A DNA stretch of 19,436 nucleotides from a virus (Duplodnaviria; Heunggongvirae; Uroviricota; Caudoviricetes), in the IMG/VR virus record IMGVR_UViG_2529292972_000014, one strand, 5' to 3'. The notes beneath the pieces are model-generated. The model searched no databases, was not told where the DNA came from, and was given only the letters and a program-made list of their open reading frames with translations. Positions 1,439-10,047 of the stretch are shown here, one piece after another. The first letter of the stretch is position 1. Each line of letters begins with the position of its first letter. Position numbers and translations under genes: made by a program.

Positions 1439-1511
1439 CTGGCTGATAATGGACGGTAACAGACCGAGGGAAAGAGAGTGTGCAGCGGCTATTATAGCGC
1501 GGCGATTTTTT

Positions 1512-1574
1512 TGATACCGATTTGCATTTCATTTGATACCGCTGAAAAACGCCGATACGCAACTTATTTGATAC
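1512..1574. repeat. Direct repeats of (T)TTGATAC(C) near the prophage terminus; candidate transposase end-binding sites
   Basis: tgatac at 1512-1517, 1534-1539 and 1569-1574, plus cgatac at 1553-1558, spaced about 16-22 bp, directly read from the sequence. Function inferred by analogy to Mu attR R1-R3 sites, though the motif differs from the Mu consensus. Confidence 0.35.
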
Positions 1575-1596
1575 TAAATCGGCGCTTTTCTTTTGA
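1550..1596. terminator. Possible bidirectional terminator downstream of mom (weak)
   Basis: Inverted repeat cgccgat (1550-1556) / atcggcg (1578-1584) with a 21-nt loop, flanked by an A5 run on the left and a T-rich run (cttttcttttgagtttt) on the right. The large loop makes this weak. Confidence 0.3.
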
Positions 1597-1620
1597 GTTT
1601 TAGAATGAGTTTTTAAGCGC

Positions 1621-2358
1621 TCATTCACTCTCTTTCAAACCAGTTTTAACTGTTTGTGGTTTTGGGTAAGGCTGGACTTTGAATAGCTTTGTGTTGAGGC
1701 GTTTTCTGGCCCTCTTGTTCAGAAACCGGATGTAACGAAACTGTCGGAACTTATGAACACTGGCTCTGTCAATATTAGCCCTCAGATGTTCACCTCGTTG
1801 TCCGCCTCGTTTAATGGCATTCCTGCAAATCTCGTGATACCACTCGCCATCAAGTTCATAGAATATTGATTCATGGCTGCCTACATAATCAAAATTGCTT
1901 GCCTGATACACGACACCAAGACAGCCACAACGCTCATCTGCAAACGACTGAACCCACTGTACCTGCGGATAAAGCTGCCTGATTAGCTTGAGCGCGTAAC
2001 TGATTGCCCTTGATTCGGAGTTTCTCGGCATACAGTCATGCAGCCATAGCCGGTTAAGCTCCATATATTCTCGGTTCTGCGTACCCGTTACGACGCGTGC
2101 ACCACTGTTTGGGTTAAGGGCGTAACCCCATTGCATTACGCCAACAAGTTCCCGTTCTGAAAATATGCCCAGATGAAGGTAGGAGTTATTTACGAAACGG
2201 TGGCTGTAATGTTTATTGACGATGACCAGTCTGGCCAGCCAGCAACTTATTGTCTCAACCCGCAACTCACGGGAGCCATAACCAACGATATTGTCGTTAT
2301 AGCGAATAAGTTCAGGCGTGCTGATGATTCGGGATGTGACTTGCTTTCTGTTCCCCAC
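1621..2358 (-). CDS. mom: Mom-family DNA modification protein (adenine modification, anti-restriction)
   Basis: 245-aa ORF immediately downstream of, and overlapping by 47 nt, a Com-like zinc-finger gene; located after the invertase at the prophage terminus exactly as in Mu. GTG start at 2358 with an aaggaa RBS about 9 nt upstream. Identity rests on context and size, not on a remembered sequence alignment. Confidence 0.75.
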
Positions 2359-2512
2359 GACAGGATTTCCTTGTGTATGTGGGGTGCTCTGTGGCGCTCG
2401 GAGATGTGATTTGATTGAGGGTTTTACAGCGCGGACATTTTACTTCCAGATAACTGAAACTGGCCCGTGCCAGTAGCTTATTGCAGTGTCGGCACCGTAT
2501 GTTTCGATACAT
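2312..2512 (-). CDS. com: Com-like zinc-finger translational activator of mom
   Basis: [18 protein letters not shown]...[10 protein letters not shown]...EHPT closely parallels the Mu Com pattern (IRCKNCNKLL...IRCPRCK...EHPT) as recalled. ATG at 2512 is preceded by an aggagg RBS; the ORF track's longer 2557 start is a TTG. Confidence 0.8.
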
Positions 2513-2555
2513 GACCGCATAACCTCCTGCTTTGTTGTTGATGCCTTTCTCATGC

Positions 2556-2698
2556 AATCGATCGACAAAAACGATCGATTCGATTTGTTTAATTGATACA
2601 ACAAATAGATTGAAAAGTCATCAACAATGATTCAGGGAGGTGATTATTTACTTAAAGAAAACGAAGAGTTAGGTGGTGAAAACGATCATAAAATGATC
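2556..2698. promoter_or_regulatory. GATC-rich palindromic region upstream of com-mom (candidate Dam-methylation-sensitive promoter/operator region)
   Basis: Perfect 9-bp inverted repeat aatcgatcg(2556-2564)/cgatcgatt(2572-2580) carrying GATC at 2560-2563 and 2573-2576. Second palindrome gatcat aaa atgatc (2684-2698) carrying GATC at 2684-2687 and 2695-2698. Mu mom is known to be controlled through clustered upstream GATC sites. Confidence 0.4.
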
Positions 2699-2784
2699 AT
2701 TTTATTGACTTTTTATACAGTGAAGGTAGGATCACGCGTATATGTAGTATGTTTCAAATCAACAGGATACTACATAAAAGTGAA

Positions 2785-2812
2785 ACCCAGCATAGCTGGA
2801 ACTATGCTGGGT
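2785..2812. repeat. Perfect 11-bp inverted repeat (acccagcatag ctggaa ctatgctgggt); stem-loop or dimeric protein-binding site
   Basis: Read directly from the sequence. On the minus strand it is followed by a U-rich stretch (ttcacttttatg), so it could terminate or insulate minus-strand read-through into com-mom. Confidence 0.5.
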
Positions 2813-2923
2813 CAATCTGTAAAAACTTGCATCAATGCTTTACTTCGAGCTCGTGGCGTATCCTATGATATTCCCCGGTCTCCTGTAAAGCAGAGATGCA
2901 TAAAAAGGAGATCTTTATCATGG

Positions 2924-3091
2924 ATGAAAGAGCCTGTTTGCCCTGCCTGTAAGACTCCCTTACAGCTCATCTATCGCCGTTCTCGATCTCAAAATGGCAA
3001 GACATACAAACCCAAAAATGCTTCCTGTTTCAGGATGCTGATATGTCCTGCCTGTTCTCCCAGGAGGGAAAATACACAAAACGTGCATTAA
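2924..3091 (+). CDS. Small zinc-ribbon protein (CPAC...29 aa...CPAC), divergent from com-mom; N-terminal extent uncertain (ORF open from 2627)
   Basis: Two CxxC pairs (MKEPVCPACKTPLQLIYRRSRSQNGKTYKPKNASCFRMLICPAC). aaggag RBS at 2905-2910. Ends in a convergent arrangement with the minus-strand 81-aa ORF across a GC-rich hairpin. Plus-strand position among minus-strand genes makes it less certain. Confidence 0.35.
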   Translation: MKEPVCPACKTPLQLIYRRSRSQNGKTYKPKNASCFRMLICPACSPRRENTQNVH

Positions 3092-3100
3092 CAAACTCAC

Positions 3101-3120
3101 CCGGCAGGGAAACCTGCCGG
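3101..3120. terminator. GC-rich hairpin with GAAA tetraloop between convergent ORFs (candidate bidirectional terminator)
   Basis: ccggcagg gaaa cctgccgg, an 8-bp perfect stem. Lies between the stop of the plus-strand ORF (3091) and the stop of the minus-strand 81-aa ORF (3130). U-rich flanks are imperfect on both strands. Confidence 0.45.
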
Positions 3121-3129
3121 TCGGTATTG

Positions 3130-3375
3130 TTACATCATAGTACCGTCAGTTCCGGGCTGAACCGGCTCTGGTTGCTCTACGGGTTGAGGATCATTTTCCG
3201 TGCTGTTTTCAGCCGGAGAACGGCCAACCATTCGGGCCAGCACTTCATCAACATATGCGTCGATTTGTGCCTCAAAATCCTTGCGAACCTGCGCCTTCAG
3301 CACGCGGTTCACTTCTTCAGAATAAAGTGCCTGTTTGACAAGCTCTTCAGTAACCGTGCCTTTAATCTCTGGCAT
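3130..3375 (-). CDS. Hypothetical 81-aa acidic, Pro/Glu-rich C-terminus protein
   Basis: Strong aaggag RBS 7 nt upstream of the ATG at 3375. Followed by the hairpin at 3101-3120. No family recognised. Confidence 0.5.
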   Translation of the reverse strand: MPEIKGTVTEELVKQALYSEEVNRVLKAQVRKDFEAQIDAYVDEVLARMVGRSPAENSTENDPQPVEQPEPVQPGTDGTMM

Positions 3376-3410
3376 GAATATTCTCCTTTTGCAGGTATAT
3401 TGCCCCGTTA

Positions 3411-3593
3411 TCAGAGCGGGGTCGGGTCGTTTGGGGATGACGGTGCCTGTGCTGTTTTACTGAGTTTTTCAGCTGCCGCATCATCAATTTTACGGCGAAT
3501 ATAATTTCTGATGACCTTATAACCACCGCTCACCAGATATAACGCACTGACCACAGCGCAGAAATAAAGCAGCATTGTATGAACGAATGTCAT
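3411..3593 (-). CDS. Hypothetical 60-aa small membrane protein (single N-terminal TM helix, charged C-terminus)
   Basis: Hydrophobic stretch MLLYFCAVVSALYLVSGGY followed by a basic/acidic tail. Plausible RBS (aaggtaagg) upstream of the ATG at 3593. No family recognised. Confidence 0.4.
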   Translation of the reverse strand: MTFVHTMLLYFCAVVSALYLVSGGYKVIRNYIRRKIDDAAAEKLSKTAQAPSSPNDPTPL

Positions 3594-3661
3594 ATAACCT
3601 TACCTTTGATATTGACTACATAATTCGTTATCGGGTAAAAACATCGAAGCGACTGATAACC

Positions 3662-3686
3662 ACTCCTTCGGGAGTATTTTTATTTT
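3662..3686 (+). terminator. Intrinsic-terminator-like hairpin on the plus strand (actcc-UUCG-ggagt followed by atttttatttt)
   Basis: 5-bp stem with a UUCG tetraloop and a T-rich tail, read directly. Oriented opposite to all neighbouring genes. Confidence 0.35.
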
Positions 3687-3705
3687 CCTTTATGGGTTAG
3701 GTAGC

Positions 3706-3742
3706 TCCCGCCAGCCATATCATGACCGGCGGGATTTTTTTA
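3706..3742 (+). terminator. Intrinsic-terminator-like hairpin on the plus strand (cccgcc...ggcggg followed by T7)
   Basis: GC-rich stem cccgcc(3707-3712)/ggcggg(3728-3733) followed by attttttta. Overlaps the stop codon of the minus-strand 679-aa gene. Confidence 0.4.
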
Positions 3743-5779
3743 TTCTGTTACCGCTTTTTTCACTTCCACCACAATGCTGTCAATCAGCACCGGGTAAGTT
3801 GCATTTTTTGTGATATCCGTTACGCGGAGTTTGTCCACCGGGAAAGTTCCTACTGGTGACTGCGTCAGGGTAAACGCGGCACCATCCTGACCATCAATAA
3901 CCGGAATAACCTGAAGGCTGTTATTTCCTGCAAAACGGAAGGCCAGCGTATGCCATTCATTATCAAATGCACCAAAGGTTCCCAGTTTCTGGTTATTTGT
4001 TGCCACTTTTGCATTGTGGTACATCACATTCAGGTCTTTTGCGTCTGTCTGGATGTAGAACGATGCCAGCAGATTATTCCCTGCATCCCCTGTCAGGGTG
4101 ACACCCTGCGGCAGAGAGGAAACCGGCCAGTAAAGCCCCATGACATACTGGTTTGCCACCAGGTCGCCAGGTACTTTAAAACGACAACTGATTAAACCAC
4201 CATTTTTCAGCAGTTCAGCACCAGTACCGGCATCATGATCCAGATACCAAGATGATTTACCTGTTTCCTTGGTCAGTTTCATTGCCTTACCACCTGTGCC
4301 TCCTGCATCACTGATAATTTCAGCTTTACCGCCAGCCGGCTCCCAGCCCTGGGCTTTCAGATTTCCTTCTGACTCACTGACACGATAAGACAGCAGTGTT
4401 GTGGTTACTGCTTCAGTTTCTGAAGGTGACGGCACTGGTGCTTCAGTTTCAGAAGATGGAACATCGGCTTTTACTGTGGTTCGCCCCGCATGAGTCAGAA
4501 CTGCCGTGGCCAGACGGTCGGAAATAATCCCACGACGTGCCCATGAACTGAAATGGCTGGCCCGGTCCGCAGATGTCCAGGTGGCGGCACTGTTACGCCA
4601 CGTTGAGCCGTAATAACCAATGGATTCAATATCCGGGTCTTCTGCCGGATTGTTGGTGGGTACATTCGCGTCATTTTCATCTGTCATTAATGGAACGAAA
4701 TGAATGTTTTTATCTGTTTTGTTTTTGTAGCCGCCATAGATTGCCTGGTATGCCGGTTCATTTTTCTGTTTCCAGAAATACGTGGTATCGCCACAAATCC
4801 ACGGAACGCCAGCAGCACTGCCACCGGTACACTGTTCCGCCTGTTCAGCCAGGTCTGCGCGGAATTTTTCCACCATCGCCAGAAACAGCGCGGAATGCTC
4901 CGTCGGCTTCGCATCAATATCAAACTCGCCCTGCATCCACACCACAGCAAGCAGGCGGTTTTTCGGGTTCTTCGCCAGTGCCGCTTTTGTCCGGCTGATT
5001 AAGTCCTTATACAGCGGCTTATCCACACCCCAGCGGGCTGAGTCCTCTGAAGCACCCGTGCTGTCACTGTACGTGCCGTCAGCACCCGCCGTGAATGCAG
5101 AACCACCACGGCAGCAGGGAACCAGCAGAATCCCCGCATCTGCCGGAATAAACGGCAGCAGTTTTTTGGCAATGTGAAGCCCCTGACCCACGGTGCCATA
5201 TTGCCCTTTAGCCACATCCGCTTTCGGGTGATTTTTTCCACTCATATCCTGCACATCATGCAGACAGTGGTCGGCCAGAATGATGTCGTTATACTGACAG
5301 GCTTTACCTCCCGGCGTGACTGTACTGCGACGGGCTAACTGCATAATACGCGGTTCGGGGCGGTCATATGTCTCCGGCAGTGGCAGACCTTCACCGTAAG
5401 CCATACCGTTTGACTGACCAGCAAGAACCACCACGTAATACCAGGAAGGGGAGCTGGAAGCAGTTTCATTTCCTGACGGACGGGTATGTGTTTCAGCATT
5501 ATCCCAGTCTGACGGTTCAGCAGTACCGGCAACATCAGCACTTAACGGAATGACCGCACCAATACCCGCTCCGGTAATTTCCACACTCGGATCACCGGAT
5601 ACTGGCCTTACCCACAGGCAATCCCGTGTATTAAAACTGATGAGACAGTCAGCAAATGTCATTCCTCCTTTTGTTTCGGCCGGAGGAAAGGGAGCCTCAA
5701 GAAATGCCGCTGTACCACCGGAAACTTTAACAGTAAAGTTTCCGGGCATTGATGATAGTTGAACCCATTTGGACGTCAT
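3740..5779 (-). CDS. SGNH/SASA-family carbohydrate esterase (sialate O-acetylesterase NanS-p-like) with C-terminal lectin/LamG-like beta-rich domain; phage accessory (moron) gene
   Basis: 679-aa ORF. Motifs YYVVVLAGQSNGMAYGEG (GQSN catalytic-Ser block), VVWMQGEFD (WxQGE block) and a later His-containing block are consistent with sialate O-acetylesterase-type SGNH hydrolases. C-terminal roughly 250 aa is beta-rich and lectin-like. Linker contains a duplicated SETEAPVPSPSETEA segment (direct repeat gcttcagtttc[t/a]gaag about 4410-4456). Confidence 0.65.
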   Translation of the reverse strand: MTSKWVQLSSMPGNFTVKVSGGTAAFLEAPFPPAETKGGMTFADCLISFNTRDCLWVRPVSGDPSVEITGAGIGAVIPLSADVAGTAEPSDWDNAETHTRPSGNETASSSPSWYYVVVLAGQSNGMAYGEGLPLPETYDRPEPRIMQLARRSTVTPGGKACQYNDIILADHCLHDVQDMSGKNHPKADVAKGQYGTVGQGLHIAKKLLPFIPADAGILLVPCCRGGSAFTAGADGTYSDSTGASEDSARWGVDKPLYKDLISRTKAALAKNPKNRLLAVVWMQGEFDIDAKPTEHSALFLAMVEKFRADLAEQAEQCTGGSAAGVPWICGDTTYFWKQKNEPAYQAIYGGYKNKTDKNIHFVPLMTDENDANVPTNNPAEDPDIESIGYYGSTWRNSAATWTSADRASHFSSWARRGIISDRLATAVLTHAGRTTVKADVPSSETEAPVPSPSETEAVTTTLLSYRVSESEGNLKAQGWEPAGGKAEIISDAGGTGGKAMKLTKETGKSSWYLDHDAGTGAELLKNGGLISCRFKVPGDLVANQYVMGLYWPVSSLPQGVTLTGDAGNNLLASFYIQTDAKDLNVMYHNAKVATNNQKLGTFGAFDNEWHTLAFRFAGNNSLQVIPVIDGQDGAAFTLTQSPVGTFPVDKLRVTDITKNATYPVLIDSIVVEVKKAVTE

Positions 5780-5878
5780 AATAATCAGCCTGTTCCTGAA
5801 TAAACTGAATTATCATATCCACAGACCGATAAACGCCATTTTGCGTTAATTCAGTAAAGGCCCAACAAAGGGAGCGTC

Positions 5879-6439
5879 TTATTTTTCCGAAACGCTCGCA
5901 GGATAATAACGATAAAGGGTTGAAAGGCCGATATCAAAAATAAGTGCCACCTGTCTTCGACTGACACCCCCGGCCAGTAAACGCCCGACCTGCTCGTATT
6001 GTTCCTGCGTGAGACGACGGGGTCTGCCGCCGGTTCGTCCCCTTTCACGGGCAGCTGCAAGACCAGCCCGTGTCCGTTCGACAATTAATTCACGCTCCAT
6101 TTCTGCCAGCGCACCCATTATGTGAAAAAAGAAGCGCCCCATGGGGGTTGACGTATCAATGTTGTCAGTAAGACTACGAAAATTTATCCCCTGTTGCTGT
6201 AATTCATCTGTCAGCGCAACAAGGTGGCGCATACTGCGCCCCAGCCTGTCCAGTTTCCAGACCATCAGTGTGTCACCGGGTTTTAGTTTCTTCAGTGCCC
6301 GCTTCAGTCCCGGCCGCTGTGTCGTTTTACCACTCATTTTATCTTCAAAAATCTGCTCACATCCTGCACATTCCAGCGCATTTCTTTGTAAACCTGTGTT
6401 CTGGTCATTTGTTGATACGCGTATATAGCCAATCAGCAT
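5879..6439 (-). CDS. gin: Serine DNA invertase, Gin/Pin/Cin/Hin family
   Basis: MLIGYIRVSTNDQNTGLQRNAL...WKLDRLGRSMRHL...GRFFFHIMGALAEMERELIVERT... is the canonical resolvase/invertase catalytic domain with a C-terminal HTH. Adjacent to a gix-like crossover site and the invertible fibre segment. Symbol gin chosen from Mu-like context; pin is equally possible. Confidence 0.93.
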   Translation of the reverse strand: MLIGYIRVSTNDQNTGLQRNALECAGCEQIFEDKMSGKTTQRPGLKRALKKLKPGDTLMVWKLDRLGRSMRHLVALTDELQQQGINFRSLTDNIDTSTPMGRFFFHIMGALAEMERELIVERTRAGLAAARERGRTGGRPRRLTQEQYEQVGRLLAGGVSRRQVALIFDIGLSTLYRYYPASVSEK

Positions 6440-6493
6440 GTATTTACCTTCCTTAAAAAGAGGTGGAAAGGCCTTTTAAAGCAGATATACGGC

Positions 6494-6519
6494 ATCCCTG
6501 AAACCTCGGTTTACGGGAT
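6494..6519. other. Invertase crossover site (gix/pix-like), left
   Basis: atccctgaaacc tc ggtttacgggat: two 12-bp half-sites in inverted orientation around a 2-bp core, resembling the gix half-site TTCCTGTAAACC as recalled. Confidence 0.7.
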
Positions 6520-6864
6520 ACTGTAAACAGGGCCGCGAATGCCCTGCCATCGAACGGAGCGGCTGTTGCAGCGAATAAACTCGCCACTCCAAGAAATATT
6601 AATGGTGTCCCATTTGACGGAACGCAGGATATAAATATTACATCGGGGATGACGCAGTCTGTGGCTGACTCACGTTATGTTCAAAGCATTCGAAGAGGTT
6701 CAAGGTCAACGATTGGAATGCAATATAATATTTTTGAGGTTCCTGACGGATGCGTACTTACAGGGCTTGATGTCGCTGGTGATGGTAATGCAACGGTAAC
6801 CGCATATTATCGACCTGTTCAGTTTCTGATAGATGGTTCGTGGAAAACAGCTTCCAGCGCATAA
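6508..6864 (+). CDS. Alternative (currently silent) tail-fibre C-terminal segment; no own start codon, expressed only after inversion fuses it to the constant fibre N-terminus
   Basis: Frame open from the crossover site; translates GLRDTVNRAANALPSNGGAVAANKLATPRNINGVPFDGTQDINITSGM...TAYYRPVQFLIDGSWKTASSA, paralogous to residues 178-303 of the expressed fibre. Confidence 0.6.
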   Translation, partial: GLRDTVNRAANALPSNGAAVAANKLATPRNINGVPFDGTQDINITSGMTQSVADSRYVQSIRRGSRSTIGMQYNIFEVPDGCVLTGLDVAGDGNATVTAYYRPVQFLIDGSWKTASSA

Positions 6865-6943
6865 AAGTGCAGTAGTTCAAAAAACAGATTATCTGAATAA
6901 ATATATGATGATTTTGTCTTTTCAACAAAAACAAGGTGAAATA

Positions 6944-7465
6944 ATGGAGCTTATTAACGTAAAACGATATTACCCGGAACACAAACCCTATGGTGAGGAT
7001 GTTCAGTATTTCCAGAGTGAGGACGGAAGGGATTTTTATGAATCTATCCCGCTTTTCACAAAGAAATACAAACTCTGTATTTCGCCTGTAACGGGTATTA
7101 TCTGCTCTGTTGCTGAAGATGTCTCTGCTTTATATCCGGCAGGTTTTACTGTTGTTGAAGTGGACGAACTGCCGGAAGGTGTGAATATTGACGGTAACTG
7201 GCAGTTTTCTGATGGCCTGATATCAAAGGTGCCGGTAAACTGGAAGACGGTTGCTGAAAAGCGCCGCTCATCGCTGCTCCAGGAAGCCAACGAAACTGTG
7301 GATGACTGGAAAACGGAATTAAAACTGGACATGATTAGCGATGAAAATAAATTACAGCTGACGCGCTGGATGGCGTATATCCGACAGCTTAAAGAAATGC
7401 ACTTTAATGATATTGCCAGTGAGGGGCATTACCAGGCGATTCCCTGGCCGGAAAAACCGGAATAA
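6944..7465 (+). CDS. Tail fibre assembly protein (Tfa/U family), belonging to the silent fibre arm
   Basis: aaggtg RBS 7 nt upstream of the ATG at 6944. C-terminus ...QAIPWPEKPE matches the conserved Tfa ending (WPxKPE). The ORF track's longer 6833 start is unlikely. Confidence 0.8.
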   Translation: MELINVKRYYPEHKPYGEDVQYFQSEDGRDFYESIPLFTKKYKLCISPVTGIICSVAEDVSALYPAGFTVVEVDELPEGVNIDGNWQFSDGLISKVPVNWKTVAEKRRSSLLQEANETVDDWKTELKLDMISDENKLQLTRWMAYIRQLKEMHFNDIASEGHYQAIPWPEKPE

Positions 7466-7499
7466 TTCAGAGGGTGCATTCAGCACCCTTTTCTGTGGT

Positions 7500-8411
7500 T
7501 TACACTGAACTTACCGTTCTCCAGGCATTATTAATATAAATCTGAACCGGGCGATAATAGACCCCACCGATATTGTCCGCAGACCGGGAGCCGGTTTCCT
7601 GCACGTTAATTCCGGAAAGCATACAACCGGAAGGTGCGCTGTAATTCCATGACATTTCATTGCCTCCGGGTGAATGATAGCTCTGTGCTCCAAGCTGAAC
7701 ATTCTGTACATACCGGCCATCTGCGGTTGACTGCGTCATTCCTGACGTGATGTTGATATCCAGCGTTCCGTCAAAAGGAACACCATTAATATTTCTTGGG
7801 GTGGCGAGTCTGTTTGCTGCCACGGCGGTTCCACCCGATGGCAGGGCATCAGCAGCCTTATTTACCGTTTCCCGTAAACCGACGTTATCGATAAAAGCGC
7901 CTTTATCCGGAATGTCTGCGCCGTTCTGCTCCCTGCGCAGGTAACGGTTATCACCTTCGCTTTTGCTGTAAACATCCAGATTATTACGGGCGGTTCCCGC
8001 ATTCTCCAGGTCGGCAAGGTTCTGATCCTTCGCCAGAGCATTAACGTCACCGGGACCAAGACTGTTTTTTGTGGCAAGCGCCCCAAGACCAAGATAACCA
8101 CGGGCAAGACGCTGGGCTTCCGCACCGGCATCAGCAATTTCTTTCAGGTTGTTTTTCCGGGAAAAGGCATTCGCAGCGATAATGGCTTTAATGGACAGCG
8201 TAAGCTGGTTTAACTGCGCCTTATCCGGCTGAATACTGGCTTCAGCCAGAATATTCAGCAGTTCGGCCTGGAGAATATTCAGCCAGTCCTGACCAATCCA
8301 GCTGATACCTTTTTGTCCGTCACCTTCGGTAAACCAGGTGGTGGTATTACTCTGCGCCGGTGCCAGCGCAGGCATATTCGCCACGCCGGAATTATTATCA
8401 ACATGGAACAT
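7500..8411 (-). CDS. Tail fibre protein (constant N-terminal part residues 1-177 plus currently expressed variable tip 178-303)
   Basis: ATG at 8411 overlaps the upstream stop by 1 nt (taatg). C-terminus ...GGVYYRPVQIYINNAWRTVSSV resembles myovirus fibre C-termini. The right crossover site lies at codons 177-178. Confidence 0.8.
   Translation of the reverse strand: MFHVDNNSGVANMPALAPAQSNTTTWFTEGDGQKGISWIGQDWLNILQAELLNILAEASIQPDKAQLNQLTLSIKAIIAANAFSRKNNLKEIADAGAEAQRLARGYLGLGALATKNSLGPGDVNALAKDQNLADLENAGTARNNLDVYSKSEGDNRYLRREQNGADIPDKGAFIDNVGLRETVNKAADALPSGGTAVAANRLATPRNINGVPFDGTLDINITSGMTQSTADGRYVQNVQLGAQSYHSPGGNEMSWNYSAPSGCMLSGINVQETGSRSADNIGGVYYRPVQIYINNAWRTVSSV
7869..7894. other. Invertase crossover site (gix/pix-like), right, inside the tail-fibre gene
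   Basis: ttcccgtaaacc ga cgttatcgataa: left half matches the gix half-site 11/12, right half matches the TTATCnnAAACC consensus 9/12. Core ga is the reverse complement of core tc in the left site, as required for inversion. Confidence 0.6.
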
Positions 8412-8971
8412 TAAATATTCTCCTCTTCGTGACTGTTTGCATATACGTAAATAAACGTCTGCCATGCAGGCTTATAACGGTTCAGAATACATTCCAGCGC
8501 ACCGCCTTCATAAATACGCAGCGGCGTGAGAATATCATCCAGCACATTCATATTCCGGTAGCCGGTTTCACTGTTAATCGTGACAATACTGACCCACTGT
8601 GAATCCGGTGATGGCTGAATATCTATTTCATAACCAAACTCTGCCGCAAACCGGATATAAAATTCACGGTTAAGAGAGGGTTTCATCCGGTATTTATTCC
8701 CGGCATAACGCTGACGCTCCTGAATGGTTGCGCCGGTCATATCACATTCCGGTAACCCCAGATAACGCTCCCAGTCTTCCAGCAGCAGACGGGATGAATC
8801 AGGAAAACGTTCTGCCAGCATCTGGTTACCGGTCCAGGAAACACGCTCCGTGGAATGACTGAGGCCCAGGCACAAAGCCGCAAGAACGGATGACGGCCGC
8901 TTATCCCATGCCAGCCCGTCAGGCAGCAACTGCAACAGGGCGCGCTGATGCGGGGTCAGGGTTACAGCCAT
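8411..8971 (-). CDS. Mu gp48-like baseplate/tail protein (DUF2313, YmfQ-like)
   Basis: 186 aa; position between the baseplate J-like gene and the tail fibre gene. Confidence 0.65.
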   Translation of the reverse strand: MAVTLTPHQRALLQLLPDGLAWDKRPSSVLAALCLGLSHSTERVSWTGNQMLAERFPDSSRLLLEDWERYLGLPECDMTGATIQERQRYAGNKYRMKPSLNREFYIRFAAEFGYEIDIQPSPDSQWVSIVTINSETGYRNMNVLDDILTPLRIYEGGALECILNRYKPAWQTFIYVYANSHEEENI

Positions 8972-10047
8972 GTGATTTCCCCCACGGTCAGCAACTCTGT
9001 ATCTCCGGCCATCACGGACTTCAGCGGGCTGCGAACTTCAAAATCCTCCAGTCCTTTCACCCCTGCAACAGCCCGCCAGAATGATGAAGGCAATACAAGT
9101 CCACCCGGCCGCGATTCGTTATAAAGCAGGTCTGTTAATGCCTGTTTTACGGCAGCCTGATTTTCCGGCGTTTTGGGTACAATCCTGATCTCAAACGCCA
9201 CCGGCTTATTGGTCAGCTTAAACACGCTGATTGTCGGCCCAAGTGGCTGACCAACGGGCTGGCCCGTCGCCGGATCATCATGACTGCGGATATAATCCGC
9301 CACCCGCTTCACATCACCTTCTCCGGGGAAAATGTCAGGGTTATTATCCTGAACAAAAGTCACACCAACACTACCCGCCTCAGGCCATTCAGGCTTACAC
9401 CATGCCCGCGTCACGCCCGGTACTTCCCGTGCCCAGCGTTCAAAATCATACTGTGTTCCCCCTGATGGCGGGTTCTGTACCCGGAATACCAGCCTGGACA
9501 GCAACTCCGGCACCGTTTCCACATCCGCACCACCGGTGAGTCCCGTGCCGGTGACCGTGGCTGTCTGGTTGATGCCCGCCTGTGGCGTGATAAAGGACAG
9601 GCGGGTTCCGGTCGGGGTATTTCCAGCGCGCCCCGCACTTTCCGCCTCCACATTAACATTCAGTGTTCCGGCTTTTCCGGTCGCAGAGCCGGTGATGCGG
9701 TACACAACCCCATCGCTTCGCTGAAGGAGTACGCCTTCCGTGATCCCTGCATCCGTGGTCAGCATCAGTTGTACCGGTCCGTCAGCGCGGGAAGCCGGTT
9801 TACGGATGACACCCCAGAATGCGCAGTGTTTCAGGAGTTCGGCTTCATCAGCTTCTGTCGGAATTATCTGCCGGGAGATCCAGGCCAGATGTTCATGCTC
9901 CTGTGCTGACAGACCCGCCAGTGCATACGCAATGGCATTCAGGGTGGTTTCATTCACGCCCGGCTGCGAACCGGGCAGGCGCTGGCTGATATCCTGTTGT
10001 GTCTGTGTGATCAGTTGCGCCAGTGGTAAGGGCTGATAAGGCATCAT
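8962..10047 (-). CDS. Baseplate J-like protein (Mu gp47 / P2 gpJ / T4 gp6 family)
   Basis: 361 aa; conserved synteny after the gp25-like gene; start overlaps the upstream stop. Confidence 0.75.
   Translation of the reverse strand: MMPYQPLPLAQLITQTQQDISQRLPGSQPGVNETTLNAIAYALAGLSAQEHEHLAWISRQIIPTEADEAELLKHCAFWGVIRKPASRADGPVQLMLTTDAGITEGVLLQRSDGVVYRITGSATGKAGTLNVNVEAESAGRAGNTPTGTRLSFITPQAGINQTATVTGTGLTGGADVETVPELLSRLVFRVQNPPSGGTQYDFERWAREVPGVTRAWCKPEWPEAGSVGVTFVQDNNPDIFPGEGDVKRVADYIRSHDDPATGQPVGQPLGPTISVFKLTNKPVAFEIRIVPKTPENQAAVKQALTDLLYNESRPGGLVLPSSFWRAVAGVKGLEDFEVRSPLKSVMAGDTELLTVGEITWL

Follow-up and report, generated by a model that had tools for sequence, protein, structure and literature searches.

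Known prophage small RNAs and the locus in question

The prophages of pathogenic Escherichia coli encode small RNAs (sRNAs) that rewire host regulation, as Esr41 does for the expression of the locus of enterocyte effacement and of flagella. The described RNAs closest to the one considered here are PasA and PasC of strain E2348/69 of enteropathogenic E. coli (EPEC), which are validated by Northern blot and depend on Hfq (Pearl Mizrahi 2021, PMC8550237; Zhu, Shabalina & Storz 2026 preprint), and Esr41 (EcOnc14; Rfam RF02676), an Hfq-dependent sRNA encoded in SpLE1 of enterohaemorrhagic E. coli. We consider a similar gene in the IMG/VR virus record IMGVR_UViG_2529292972_000014, a stretch of 19,436 nucleotides that we call the window. 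The gene lies on the plus strand between a sialate O-acetylesterase gene and a DUF1378 gene, and its product is EcOnc37, an RNA already catalogued in E. coli O157:H7 Sakai. An earlier sequence-only reading saw two orphan small open reading frames (ORFs) here, with terminator-like hairpins on the opposite strand, and suggested a type I toxin-antitoxin-like or sRNA-regulated module. We argue with considerable confidence that the best explanation is a Mu-like prophage carrying a lambdoid cassette, in which an sRNA gene in the spacer yields EcOnc37 of ~95 nt and the two ORFs are real genes that do not make up a toxin-antitoxin pair with the RNA.

The likeness to PasA and PasC begins with position and orientation. 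Both are convergent with a prophage SASA esterase gene, as is the gene in the window. The esterase stop codon marks the end of PasC (79 nt) and of PasA in a 236-nt form, as it does for the terminator in the window. PasA and PasC have a TTGACA box, an 18-nt spacer and an A-rich hexamer, and they yield Hfq-dependent RNAs of 78-85 nt. In published data PasC begins 6 nt past the hexamer, a register that our gene model for the window shares. The RNA bodies differ to the point that PasA and PasC cannot be aligned with the window allele there, and only the promoter and terminator columns match. The downstream gene differs too, since in the EPEC prophages it is a holin gene or an insertion sequence (IS) element and not DUF1378.

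Esr41 has a promoter of the same plan (TTGACA, 18 nt, TATATA). It differs from the window gene in that it sits in a phage-like element and not beside an intact esterase gene. Its seed differs as well, so its targets probably differ. AsxR and AgvB are a third comparison. They too are short Hfq-bound sRNAs convergent with late genes of Shiga toxin (Stx)-type lambdoid prophages. However, they lie between stx and the esterase gene instead of behind it, measure 51-60 nt and are unrelated in sequence. Rfam detects AsxR or AgvB in two of the related loci (L002 and L069) and not in the window.

EcOnc37 is made in vivo and bound by Hfq

The window and Sakai have zero mismatches over 2600-4249, and two published data sets from Sakai cover the RNA. 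Tree et al. 2014 (PMC4104026) list EcOnc37 in their Table S2 within prophage Sp18, on the Sakai minus strand (the plus strand of the window) and with a predicted terminator. Its peak was found in 5 of 5 Hfq-CRAC (crosslinking and analysis of cDNA) datasets (PMC4104026). The peak spans Sakai v1 5077340-5077410 on the minus strand, which is 3680-3750 (+) in the window. This position was mapped through read sequences from CLASH (crosslinking, ligation and sequencing of hybrids); v1 5077401-5077373 corresponds to window 3689-3717, and the offset between Sakai genome versions is ~+127. In Table S1B of the same paper the spacer 'ECs4993...ECs4994' ranks 57th among Hfq-bound intergenic regions, with read counts by column of 15921/0, 5032/0, 11303/1, 91585/187 and 2303/0 (PMC4104026). 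The plus-strand Spot42 and cpxP 3'-end RNA fall in the other column of that table, and therefore the ECs4993-4994 reads belong to the Sakai minus strand.

The second data set is the RNase E-CLASH of Waters et al. 2017 (PMC5286369). The EcOnc37 entries of its supplement include the hybrid halves TTTATGGGTTAGGTAGCTCCCGCCAGCCA and TTTTCCTTTATGGGTTAGGTAGCTCCCGCCAGCCATATC, which equal window 3689-3717 (+) and 3683-3721 (+). Since these reads carry the plus-strand sequence of the window, the RNA exists and continues past the first stem-loop into the second hairpin. Taken together, the two studies demonstrate that a plus-strand RNA is made in vivo, is bound by Hfq and turns up in mRNA hybrids on RNase E. 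The short plus-strand RNA that had been proposed from the hairpins is thus borne out by published reads from an identical sequence. It must be noted that EcOnc37 was catalogued before our analysis, and that its kind (an Hfq-binding prophage sRNA) and the DUF families beside it were known as well. In both PMC4104026 and PMC5286369 it appears in supplementary tables only, and no mapped ends, targets or link to an sRNA family are given there.

Anatomy of the RNA gene

The spacer between the esterase and DUF1378 genes is 146 nt long, and the convergent plus-strand sRNA gene occupies almost all of it. A -35 box (TTGACT, 3612-3617, +) stands 19-24 nt from the DUF1378 start codon; it is conserved in the alleles and invariant in an alignment with PasA and PasC. 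A putative -10-like box (TAAAAA, 3636-3641, +) follows after 18 nt, a spacing that is fixed in nearly all alleles. Transcription from this promoter would start near 3647. The predicted RNA would then run over 3647-3741 (+), about 95 nt, a model that combines this anatomy with the published reads and takes the T-tract of the terminator as the 3' end. From 5' to 3' the transcript would contain a stem-loop capped by UUCG, a linker rich in U and a Rho-independent terminator, whose seven-T tract overlaps the esterase stop codon.

The 5' structure at 3662-3686 (+) is made of the stem-loop SL1 (ACUCC-UUCG-GGAGU, 3662-3675) and a U-rich tract. SL1 folds at -6.6 kcal/mol (z -2.3) and AUUUUUAUUUU follows. 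Positions 3676-3705 hold the U-rich linker and the candidate seed. The linker between the hairpins, CCUUUAUGGGUUAGGUAGC (3687-3705, +), is invariant in six Sp18-type variants and contains the candidate seed GGUUAGGUAG at 3695-3704. The terminator (3706-3741, +) is supported by folding, by a scan and by comparison of alleles. Its hairpin (3706-3734) folds at -14.7 kcal/mol (z -3.2), a value equalled by 0 of 200 shuffles, and is followed by T7 at 3735-3741, which overlaps the esterase stop codon (3740-3742). This is the only compact hairpin (<=-13 kcal/mol) with at least 7 T after it on either strand of the 19.4-kb window; dinucleotide shuffles of the whole window yield one or more such sites in 6 of 60 cases.

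Both hairpins, each with a T-tract behind it on the plus strand, are where the sequence-only reading put them, and it was also right that the plus strand has no convincing protein gene here, since the only ORFs are mechanical ones of 41 and 45 amino acids. Two of its details need revision. SL1 with its U-tract had been taken for a first terminator; it is read through at least in part, because CLASH fragments run from 3683 into the next hairpin. The statement that there is no convincing sigma70 promoter agrees with a consensus scan, which does not list the TTGACT/TAAAAA site because the second hexamer has no T at position 6. However, a near-consensus TTGACT does stand 18 nt before TAAAAA, and both boxes are conserved.

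Conservation across alleles

We compared 39 distinct spacers, taken as the 300 nt upstream of each DUF1378 gene in 80 IMG/VR loci, the window and five reference loci. Read in the antisense direction, all 39 follow a common plan: a -35 box, 18 nt, an A-rich hexamer, a body, a hairpin, and a T-run at the esterase stop codon. TTGAC followed by A, T or G occurs 19-30 nt from the DUF1378 start codon in 38 of the 39, and the remaining one has TTAAC. Exactly 18 nt later comes TAAAA(A), with the variants TAAAAG, TAAAAC and TAGAAA, and with CAGAAA in PasA and PasC. The full arrangement of TTGAC, 18 nt and TAAAA is found in 38/39 spacers, and it is from this conservation that the promoter in the window is inferred. 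The inter-box spacer and the RNA body have otherwise diverged. The 75-105 nt after the hexamer end with a hairpin rich in GC (-15 to -22 kcal/mol) and, behind it, 5-8 T (7-8 in most cases). In every allele these T touch or overlap the esterase stop codon, and on the mRNA strand the hairpin is followed by a U-tract in none.

The structures persist while their sequences change. The terminator stems vary by allele type (CCCGCC/GGCGGG, GCCGCCGG/CCGGCGGC, CGCCAGCG/CGCTGGCG and GCTCCCG/CGGGAGC), and all of them fold. Two variants (L010 and L015) keep the SL1 hairpin through paired changes. The tetraloop of the 5' stem-loop is UUCG in the window and GAAA in the lambdoid alleles, and these loops are of the stable kind only when the antisense strand is read. 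The lambdoid alleles and Esr41 share a motif related to the linker, CCAUUGGGAUUACC. For EcOnc33, one CLASH fragment begins precisely at the +1 that our model predicts for that allele (PMC5286369).

An alignment of 21 diverse alleles with MAFFT and RNAalifold put the terminator stems out of register, with 3 pairs and no covariation; we therefore judged the hairpins by folding each allele alone. A distant-mode blastn search of phage records with 3100-3745 (646 nt) matched two Mu-like inserts only, which means that the lambdoid alleles have diverged too far for a DNA-level search. We also considered whether the conserved T-run that is the reverse complement of TAAAAA could belong to a terminator in the sense direction. 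We rejected this, as the sense hairpins before that T-run are weak and inconsistent across alleles.

Relationship to PasA, PasC and Esr41

When the plus strand of the window is aligned with the EPEC loci and two Stx-type phages, the few invariant columns are TTGAC, the T..TC and A.AAA block at the distance of one promoter spacer downstream of it, and the terminator with its T-tract. Zhu et al. use nucleotide similarity over most of the RNA as a blastn criterion, and between the window and PasA or PasC there is no such similarity. In its 3' half, Esr41 can be aligned with the lambdoid alleles from the esterase flank, with a mean column identity of 78%, over UCUCCAUGGGG, CCGCC.G...CUGGCG and U7; TCTCCAT, CCGCC.G, CTGGCG and the T-run are the blocks without variation. 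In the window allele a related linker, UUUUCCUUUAUGGGUUAGG, is retained together with a terminator of the CCGCCAGC type. The Rfam model of Esr41 gives no match in 3050-3850 at E-values up to 10. At permissive E-values the only Rfam matches in this region are at chance level (nse_sRNA, Spot42 and PhotoRC-I), and in 20 related loci Rfam finds STnc100, AgvB and AsxR elsewhere and nothing in the esterase-DUF1378 spacer. We conclude that EcOnc37 is a homologue by position and probably a distant relative, and not a demonstrated member of the sequence families of Esr41 or of PasA and PasC.

Several other Sakai RNAs of the CLASH table represent this positional element in further prophages. EcOnc33 is the allele type of loci L021 and L042, EcOnc51 is the esterase-proximal unit in Sp12, and EcOnc35 is PasA-like. 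We regard Esr41, PasA, PasC and several EcOnc RNAs as allelic forms or counterparts of a single locus, which is linked to the esterase gene and mobile between lambdoid and Mu-like phages. HnrS (EcOnc10-12) proved to be a different sRNA. The Esr41 locus of Sakai SpLE1 (L088, 2013-2119) has a terminator of the type seen in the esterase-flank sRNAs, and the sequence after its T-tract might be a remnant of the 3' end of an esterase gene.

How EcOnc37 may act

The most likely role for EcOnc37 is that of a trans-acting Hfq sRNA. It would act mainly in trans through the linker around GGUUAGGUAG, as Esr41, PasA and PasC do. Table EV7 of PMC5286369 has about 20 hybrid entries for EcOnc37. One of those entries joins it to the 5' untranslated region of ibpA at a site 40-61 nt upstream of the start codon, with a single read and a false discovery rate (FDR) of 0.10. 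There, ibpA CUACCUGACC can pair with EcOnc37 GGUUAGGUAG (3695-3704) over 10 bp, one of them a G.U pair. Another entry joins it to ECs2098, also with a single read and with an FDR of 0.37.

Several points weigh against this account of the gene. The two hybrids just described are single reads at FDR 0.10 and 0.37, and they are therefore leads and do not make either mRNA an established trans target. The Northern column of Table S2 is blank for EcOnc37 (PMC4104026). The promoter and 5' end of the window allele are predicted from sequence; the register of the 5' end has its support elsewhere (PasC and the EcOnc33 allele). The consensus scan passes over the site, and the sixth position of the -10-like box is not the conserved T. 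For PasA, processing out of a longer transcript has been proposed. At gathering thresholds Rfam has no matching family for the region in the window, and the best match in the window to a covariance model built from Esr41 and the lambdoid alleles (3679-3740, +) reaches only 11.1 bits (E ~0.1). Finally, because the mRNA strand gives the more stable version of the terminator hairpin, this hairpin may have a function in the sense transcript too.

One can imagine a scenario where EcOnc37 works mainly in cis. Pairing with the intercistronic RNA, or head-on interference between promoters, would uncouple or tune the esterase relative to DUF1378 and DUF826, and any action in trans would be incidental. 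We find this rather unlikely as the main role. In its favour, EcOnc37 is perfectly complementary to the sense RNA of the esterase-DUF1378 spacer over ~95 nt, the esterase stop codon included. In the DNA, the sRNA promoter overlies the region where DUF1378 translation starts, and no allele departs from the position next to the stop codon. The sense RNA has been seen in vivo, as RNase E-CLASH in Sakai recovered a sense-strand intramolecular hybrid of 51 reads that joins both arms of hairpin 3706-3734 (PMC5286369). Since this RNA is present and the complementarity is full, a cis effect is possible. EcOnc37 may thus have a secondary effect in cis, either through cleavage of the duplex or through interference between converging transcriptions. 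However, the position of the gene is kept where a holin gene or an IS element stands downstream in place of DUF1378. The middle of the RNA diverges fast while the promoter and terminator stay. This fits diversification of a seed better than pairing in cis, because cis pairing needs no particular sequence. Hfq binding and hybrids with mRNAs are also typical of trans-acting RNAs.

Another scenario does away with the sRNA. The hairpins would act only in the sense mRNA, as stabilisers of the 3' end or processing sites of the esterase transcript, and the T-tracts on the plus strand would be incidental. The esterase-proximal hairpin folds at -23.2 kcal/mol on the mRNA strand and at -14.7 kcal/mol on the plus strand, 8.5 kcal/mol apart because of two G.U pairs. 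Among 17 distinct hairpins of the family, 12 are more stable in the sense direction and 3 in the antisense direction, which is a weak lean. The CLASH hybrid that joins the two arms is also from the sense strand. These observations suggest that hairpin 3706-3734 has a second role as the 3' structure of the esterase mRNA. They do not make it the sole role, and we consider the scenario without an sRNA improbable. Every allele has a T-run of 5-8 (mostly 7-8) on the plus strand and none has a U-tract on the mRNA strand, the Hfq-bound reads are almost all antisense, and conserved promoter boxes face the hairpins. The sequence-only reading had offered stabilising sense structures as its alternative, and that idea survives as a possible addition to the trans-acting sRNA and not as a replacement for it.

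The DUF1378 and DUF826 genes

The two small ORFs downstream of the spacer lie where they had been placed, at 3411-3593 (-) for 60 amino acids and at 3130-3375 (-) for 81 amino acids. The description of the shorter peptide as a single transmembrane segment with a charged stretch is confirmed. Residues 3-21 are hydrophobic (Kyte-Doolittle 19-residue mean 2.02), a basic middle follows, and the isoelectric point (pI) is 9.3. Its Shine-Dalgarno region is at 3598-3606. The longer protein is acidic (pI 4.3) and does have a strong ribosome-binding site, AAGGAG at 3383-3388, 7 nt before its ATG.

Neither ORF is an orphan. The homology search that had been proposed for the two peptides places both in conserved phage families. 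The 60-residue protein matches Pfam DUF1378 (PF07125) with 131.5 bits (E 1e-38, cut-off 25) over residues 1-59 of 59, and it matches phrog_494. The 81-residue protein matches Pfam DUF826 (PF05696) with 56.7 bits (E 3e-15, cut-off 25) over residues 1-52, and phrog_311 matches it at full length (E 7e-30). In DUF826 the N-terminal part of ~50 residues is conserved and the Pro/Glu-rich tail is variable. A tblastn search with DUF1378 found matches in 309 phage records, nearly all from Stx-converting phages or their lambdoid relatives. A DUF1378 alignment, scanned against species-representative genomes, matched 69 patterns, of which tblastn confirmed 0. There is no match for either ORF in PADLOC, in NCBIfam or among PDB sequences.

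We surveyed the neighbourhood of DUF1378 in 84 loci, of which 80 come from IMG/VR and three are reference loci, the window being the other one. Directly upstream of DUF1378 stands the esterase gene in 83/83 assessable loci, and DUF826 is directly downstream in 83/84. One allele type (L074) has no DUF826 found downstream of DUF1378. The gene after DUF826 is a holin gene in 54/84 loci and a convergent 154-aa ORF in 15/84. The ratio of nonsynonymous to synonymous substitution rates is ~0.05-0.4 for both ORFs in pairwise comparisons of alleles. Lambdoid and window alleles share ~50% of residues, and their synonymous sites are saturated. By this measure both ORFs are under purifying selection as genuine conserved protein genes, and they are probably transcribed together with the esterase gene on the same strand. 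DUF1378 is best described as a small inner-membrane protein and DUF826 as its acidic partner, going by their predicted features.

Some DUF1378 alleles are mosaic. The L042 type has an N-terminal half like that of the window, a lambdoid-like C-terminal half and a DUF826 of lambdoid type; the mosaic gene is at 3001-3171 in L042 and other IMG/VR loci and at 815-985 in L064. These alleles point to recombination inside the cassette.

A type I toxin-antitoxin module?

Type I toxin-antitoxin systems (hok/sok, tisB/istR-1, ldr/rdl, ibs/sib) also place the gene of a small single-pass membrane peptide next to an antisense-oriented small RNA gene. Applied to the window, DUF1378 would be a membrane-damaging toxin and the plus-strand RNA an antisense antitoxin that acts on the leader of its mRNA. 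DUF1378 does have the general shape of such a toxin with its 60 residues, one transmembrane segment and basic tail, and the sRNA gene is present in 39/39 distinct spacers upstream of DUF1378 genes. If the promoter of the mRNA is within or upstream of the esterase gene, EcOnc37 would be fully complementary to RNA upstream of the DUF1378 start. Some type I antitoxins act at a distance, as IstR-1 does on tisB about 100 nt upstream of the ribosome-binding site, and we count this for the toxin-antitoxin scenario.

We argue that it is highly improbable all the same. The predicted RNA (3647-3741) has no overlap with the coding sequence and ends ~41 nt from the Shine-Dalgarno region of DUF1378. The proposal that it is antisense to the leader of the small ORFs therefore holds only for a far-upstream part of the spacer. 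The position of the RNA gene is set by the esterase stop codon, and the RNA gene tracks the esterase gene and not the peptide gene; it persists without DUF1378 and DUF826 in EPEC PP2 and PP5 and in Sakai Sp12, and the relative Esr41 is located elsewhere, in SpLE1. DUF1378 is not autonomous. It always follows the esterase gene in the assessable loci, and it is part of a longer same-strand array with DUF826 and usually a holin gene next. It has no homology to a known toxin and no match to a toxin, defence or NCBIfam family (Pfam, PADLOC, NCBIfam). Relatives of the RNA bind many mRNAs in trans via Hfq. A further version would have EcOnc37 double as a cis-antisense switch that gates a putatively harmful DUF1378 plus DUF826, which would make the locus an RNA-controlled toxin-like or lysis-timing module. 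We hold this to be very unlikely. If true, it would be a switch that works by pairing with polycistronic late RNA or by head-on promoter interference within a phage gene array.

The prophage and its cassette

The window is the right end of a Mu-like prophage, and the region is the same as Sp18 of Sakai, to which 1493-9217 is 99.95% identical. At least 80% of an 801-nt region is present in 173/5426 complete E. coli genomes. The gene order on the minus strand is tail genes, a Gin-type invertase gene, the esterase gene, DUF1378, DUF826, com, mom and the Mu right end. The esterase gene (3740-5779, -) encodes a NanS-p-like sialate O-acetylesterase of 679 residues with SASA and DUF6645 domains, and RefSeq labels the cassette genes as DUF6645 esterase, DUF1378 and DUF826. 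VT2-Sakai and PhiR5_2 show the succession stx (or a different upstream gene), esterase, DUF1378, DUF826, holin S and lysozyme R. A published survey likewise locates DUF826 and DUF1378 ORFs between nanS-p and S. Since the cassette is shared with lambdoid phages and stands here inside a Mu-like order, it is lambdoid (Stx-type phage) cargo, which a Mu-like phage has taken up between its invertase gene and com/mom.

The lambdoid loci carry further sRNA genes around the esterase gene. There are 1-2 copies of STnc100 (Rfam, 97-208 bits) on the sense strand before it, with AsxR or AgvB convergent; these are at 1014-1273 in L002 and upstream of the esterase gene in L003, L065, L066, L069, L076 and L087. 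The window has no STnc100, AsxR or AgvB, so only the esterase-sRNA-DUF1378-DUF826 part entered the Mu-like phage.

Downstream of DUF826 lies the convergent 154-aa ORF (2627-3091, +). It matches phrog_26524 over residues 1-104 (E 2.5e-52) and no Pfam family, and its C-terminus has two CPAC motifs with a zinc-ribbon-like appearance. Between it and DUF826 is an 8-bp GC hairpin at 3101-3124, which reads CCGGCAGG-GAAA-CCTGCCGG on the plus strand and folds at ~-18 kcal/mol on either strand. It looks like a bidirectional terminator with weak T-tracts and is likely the end of the esterase-DUF1378-DUF826 transcript. The notion that the terminators of the sRNA gene serve to stop read-through from this plus-strand ORF before it enters the esterase gene is scarcely credible: the ORF is upstream on that strand and hairpin 3101-3124 behind it has only a weak T-tract, yet the ORF accompanies the cassette in a mere 15/84 loci and the same terminators occur in lambdoid phages where all neighbours are co-directional and there is no convergent gene.

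Other features of the window concern the prophage as a whole. The strongest intrinsic terminator of the window is at 2784-2813 (-), a 13-bp stem of ~-21 kcal/mol followed by TTTCACTTTTAT. It is within the plus-strand 154-aa ORF and just upstream of com/mom, and it probably shields mom from read-through of the cargo genes. The right end of the Mu-like prophage begins at ~1493, and repeated TTTGATAC motifs occur in 1-1620. Left of 1493 there is no match to Sakai, where sorM is interrupted by Sp18. This copy of the prophage is therefore at a different chromosomal site, beside a LysR-like gene fragment (893-1438). The Gin-type DNA invertase gene (5879-6439, -) adjoins tail-fibre and tail-fibre-assembly ORFs at 6649-6864 (+), 6833-7465 (+) and 7500-8465 (-), and 5879-8465 looks like an invertible host-range segment as in phage Mu.

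Meaning for prophage sRNAs

The importance of these results is modest. What our analysis adds to the catalogue entry for EcOnc37 is a full gene model with a conserved promoter and links to a family, and it removes DUF1378 and DUF826 as a false lead for an orphan toxin-antitoxin locus. EcOnc37 joins one positional class with PasA, PasC, Esr41, EcOnc33, EcOnc35 and EcOnc51. The class is marked by a convergent sRNA gene whose conserved -35 box is separated by 18 nt from a -10-like hexamer rich in A/T, and in all members except Esr41 the terminator lies on the stop codon of a NanS-p esterase gene. Its middle, which is likely the seed, diverges fast, and the class moves with the esterase gene between lambdoid and Mu-like phages. 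From this follow a simple annotation rule for sRNAs of this kind and a collection of naturally occurring seed variants.

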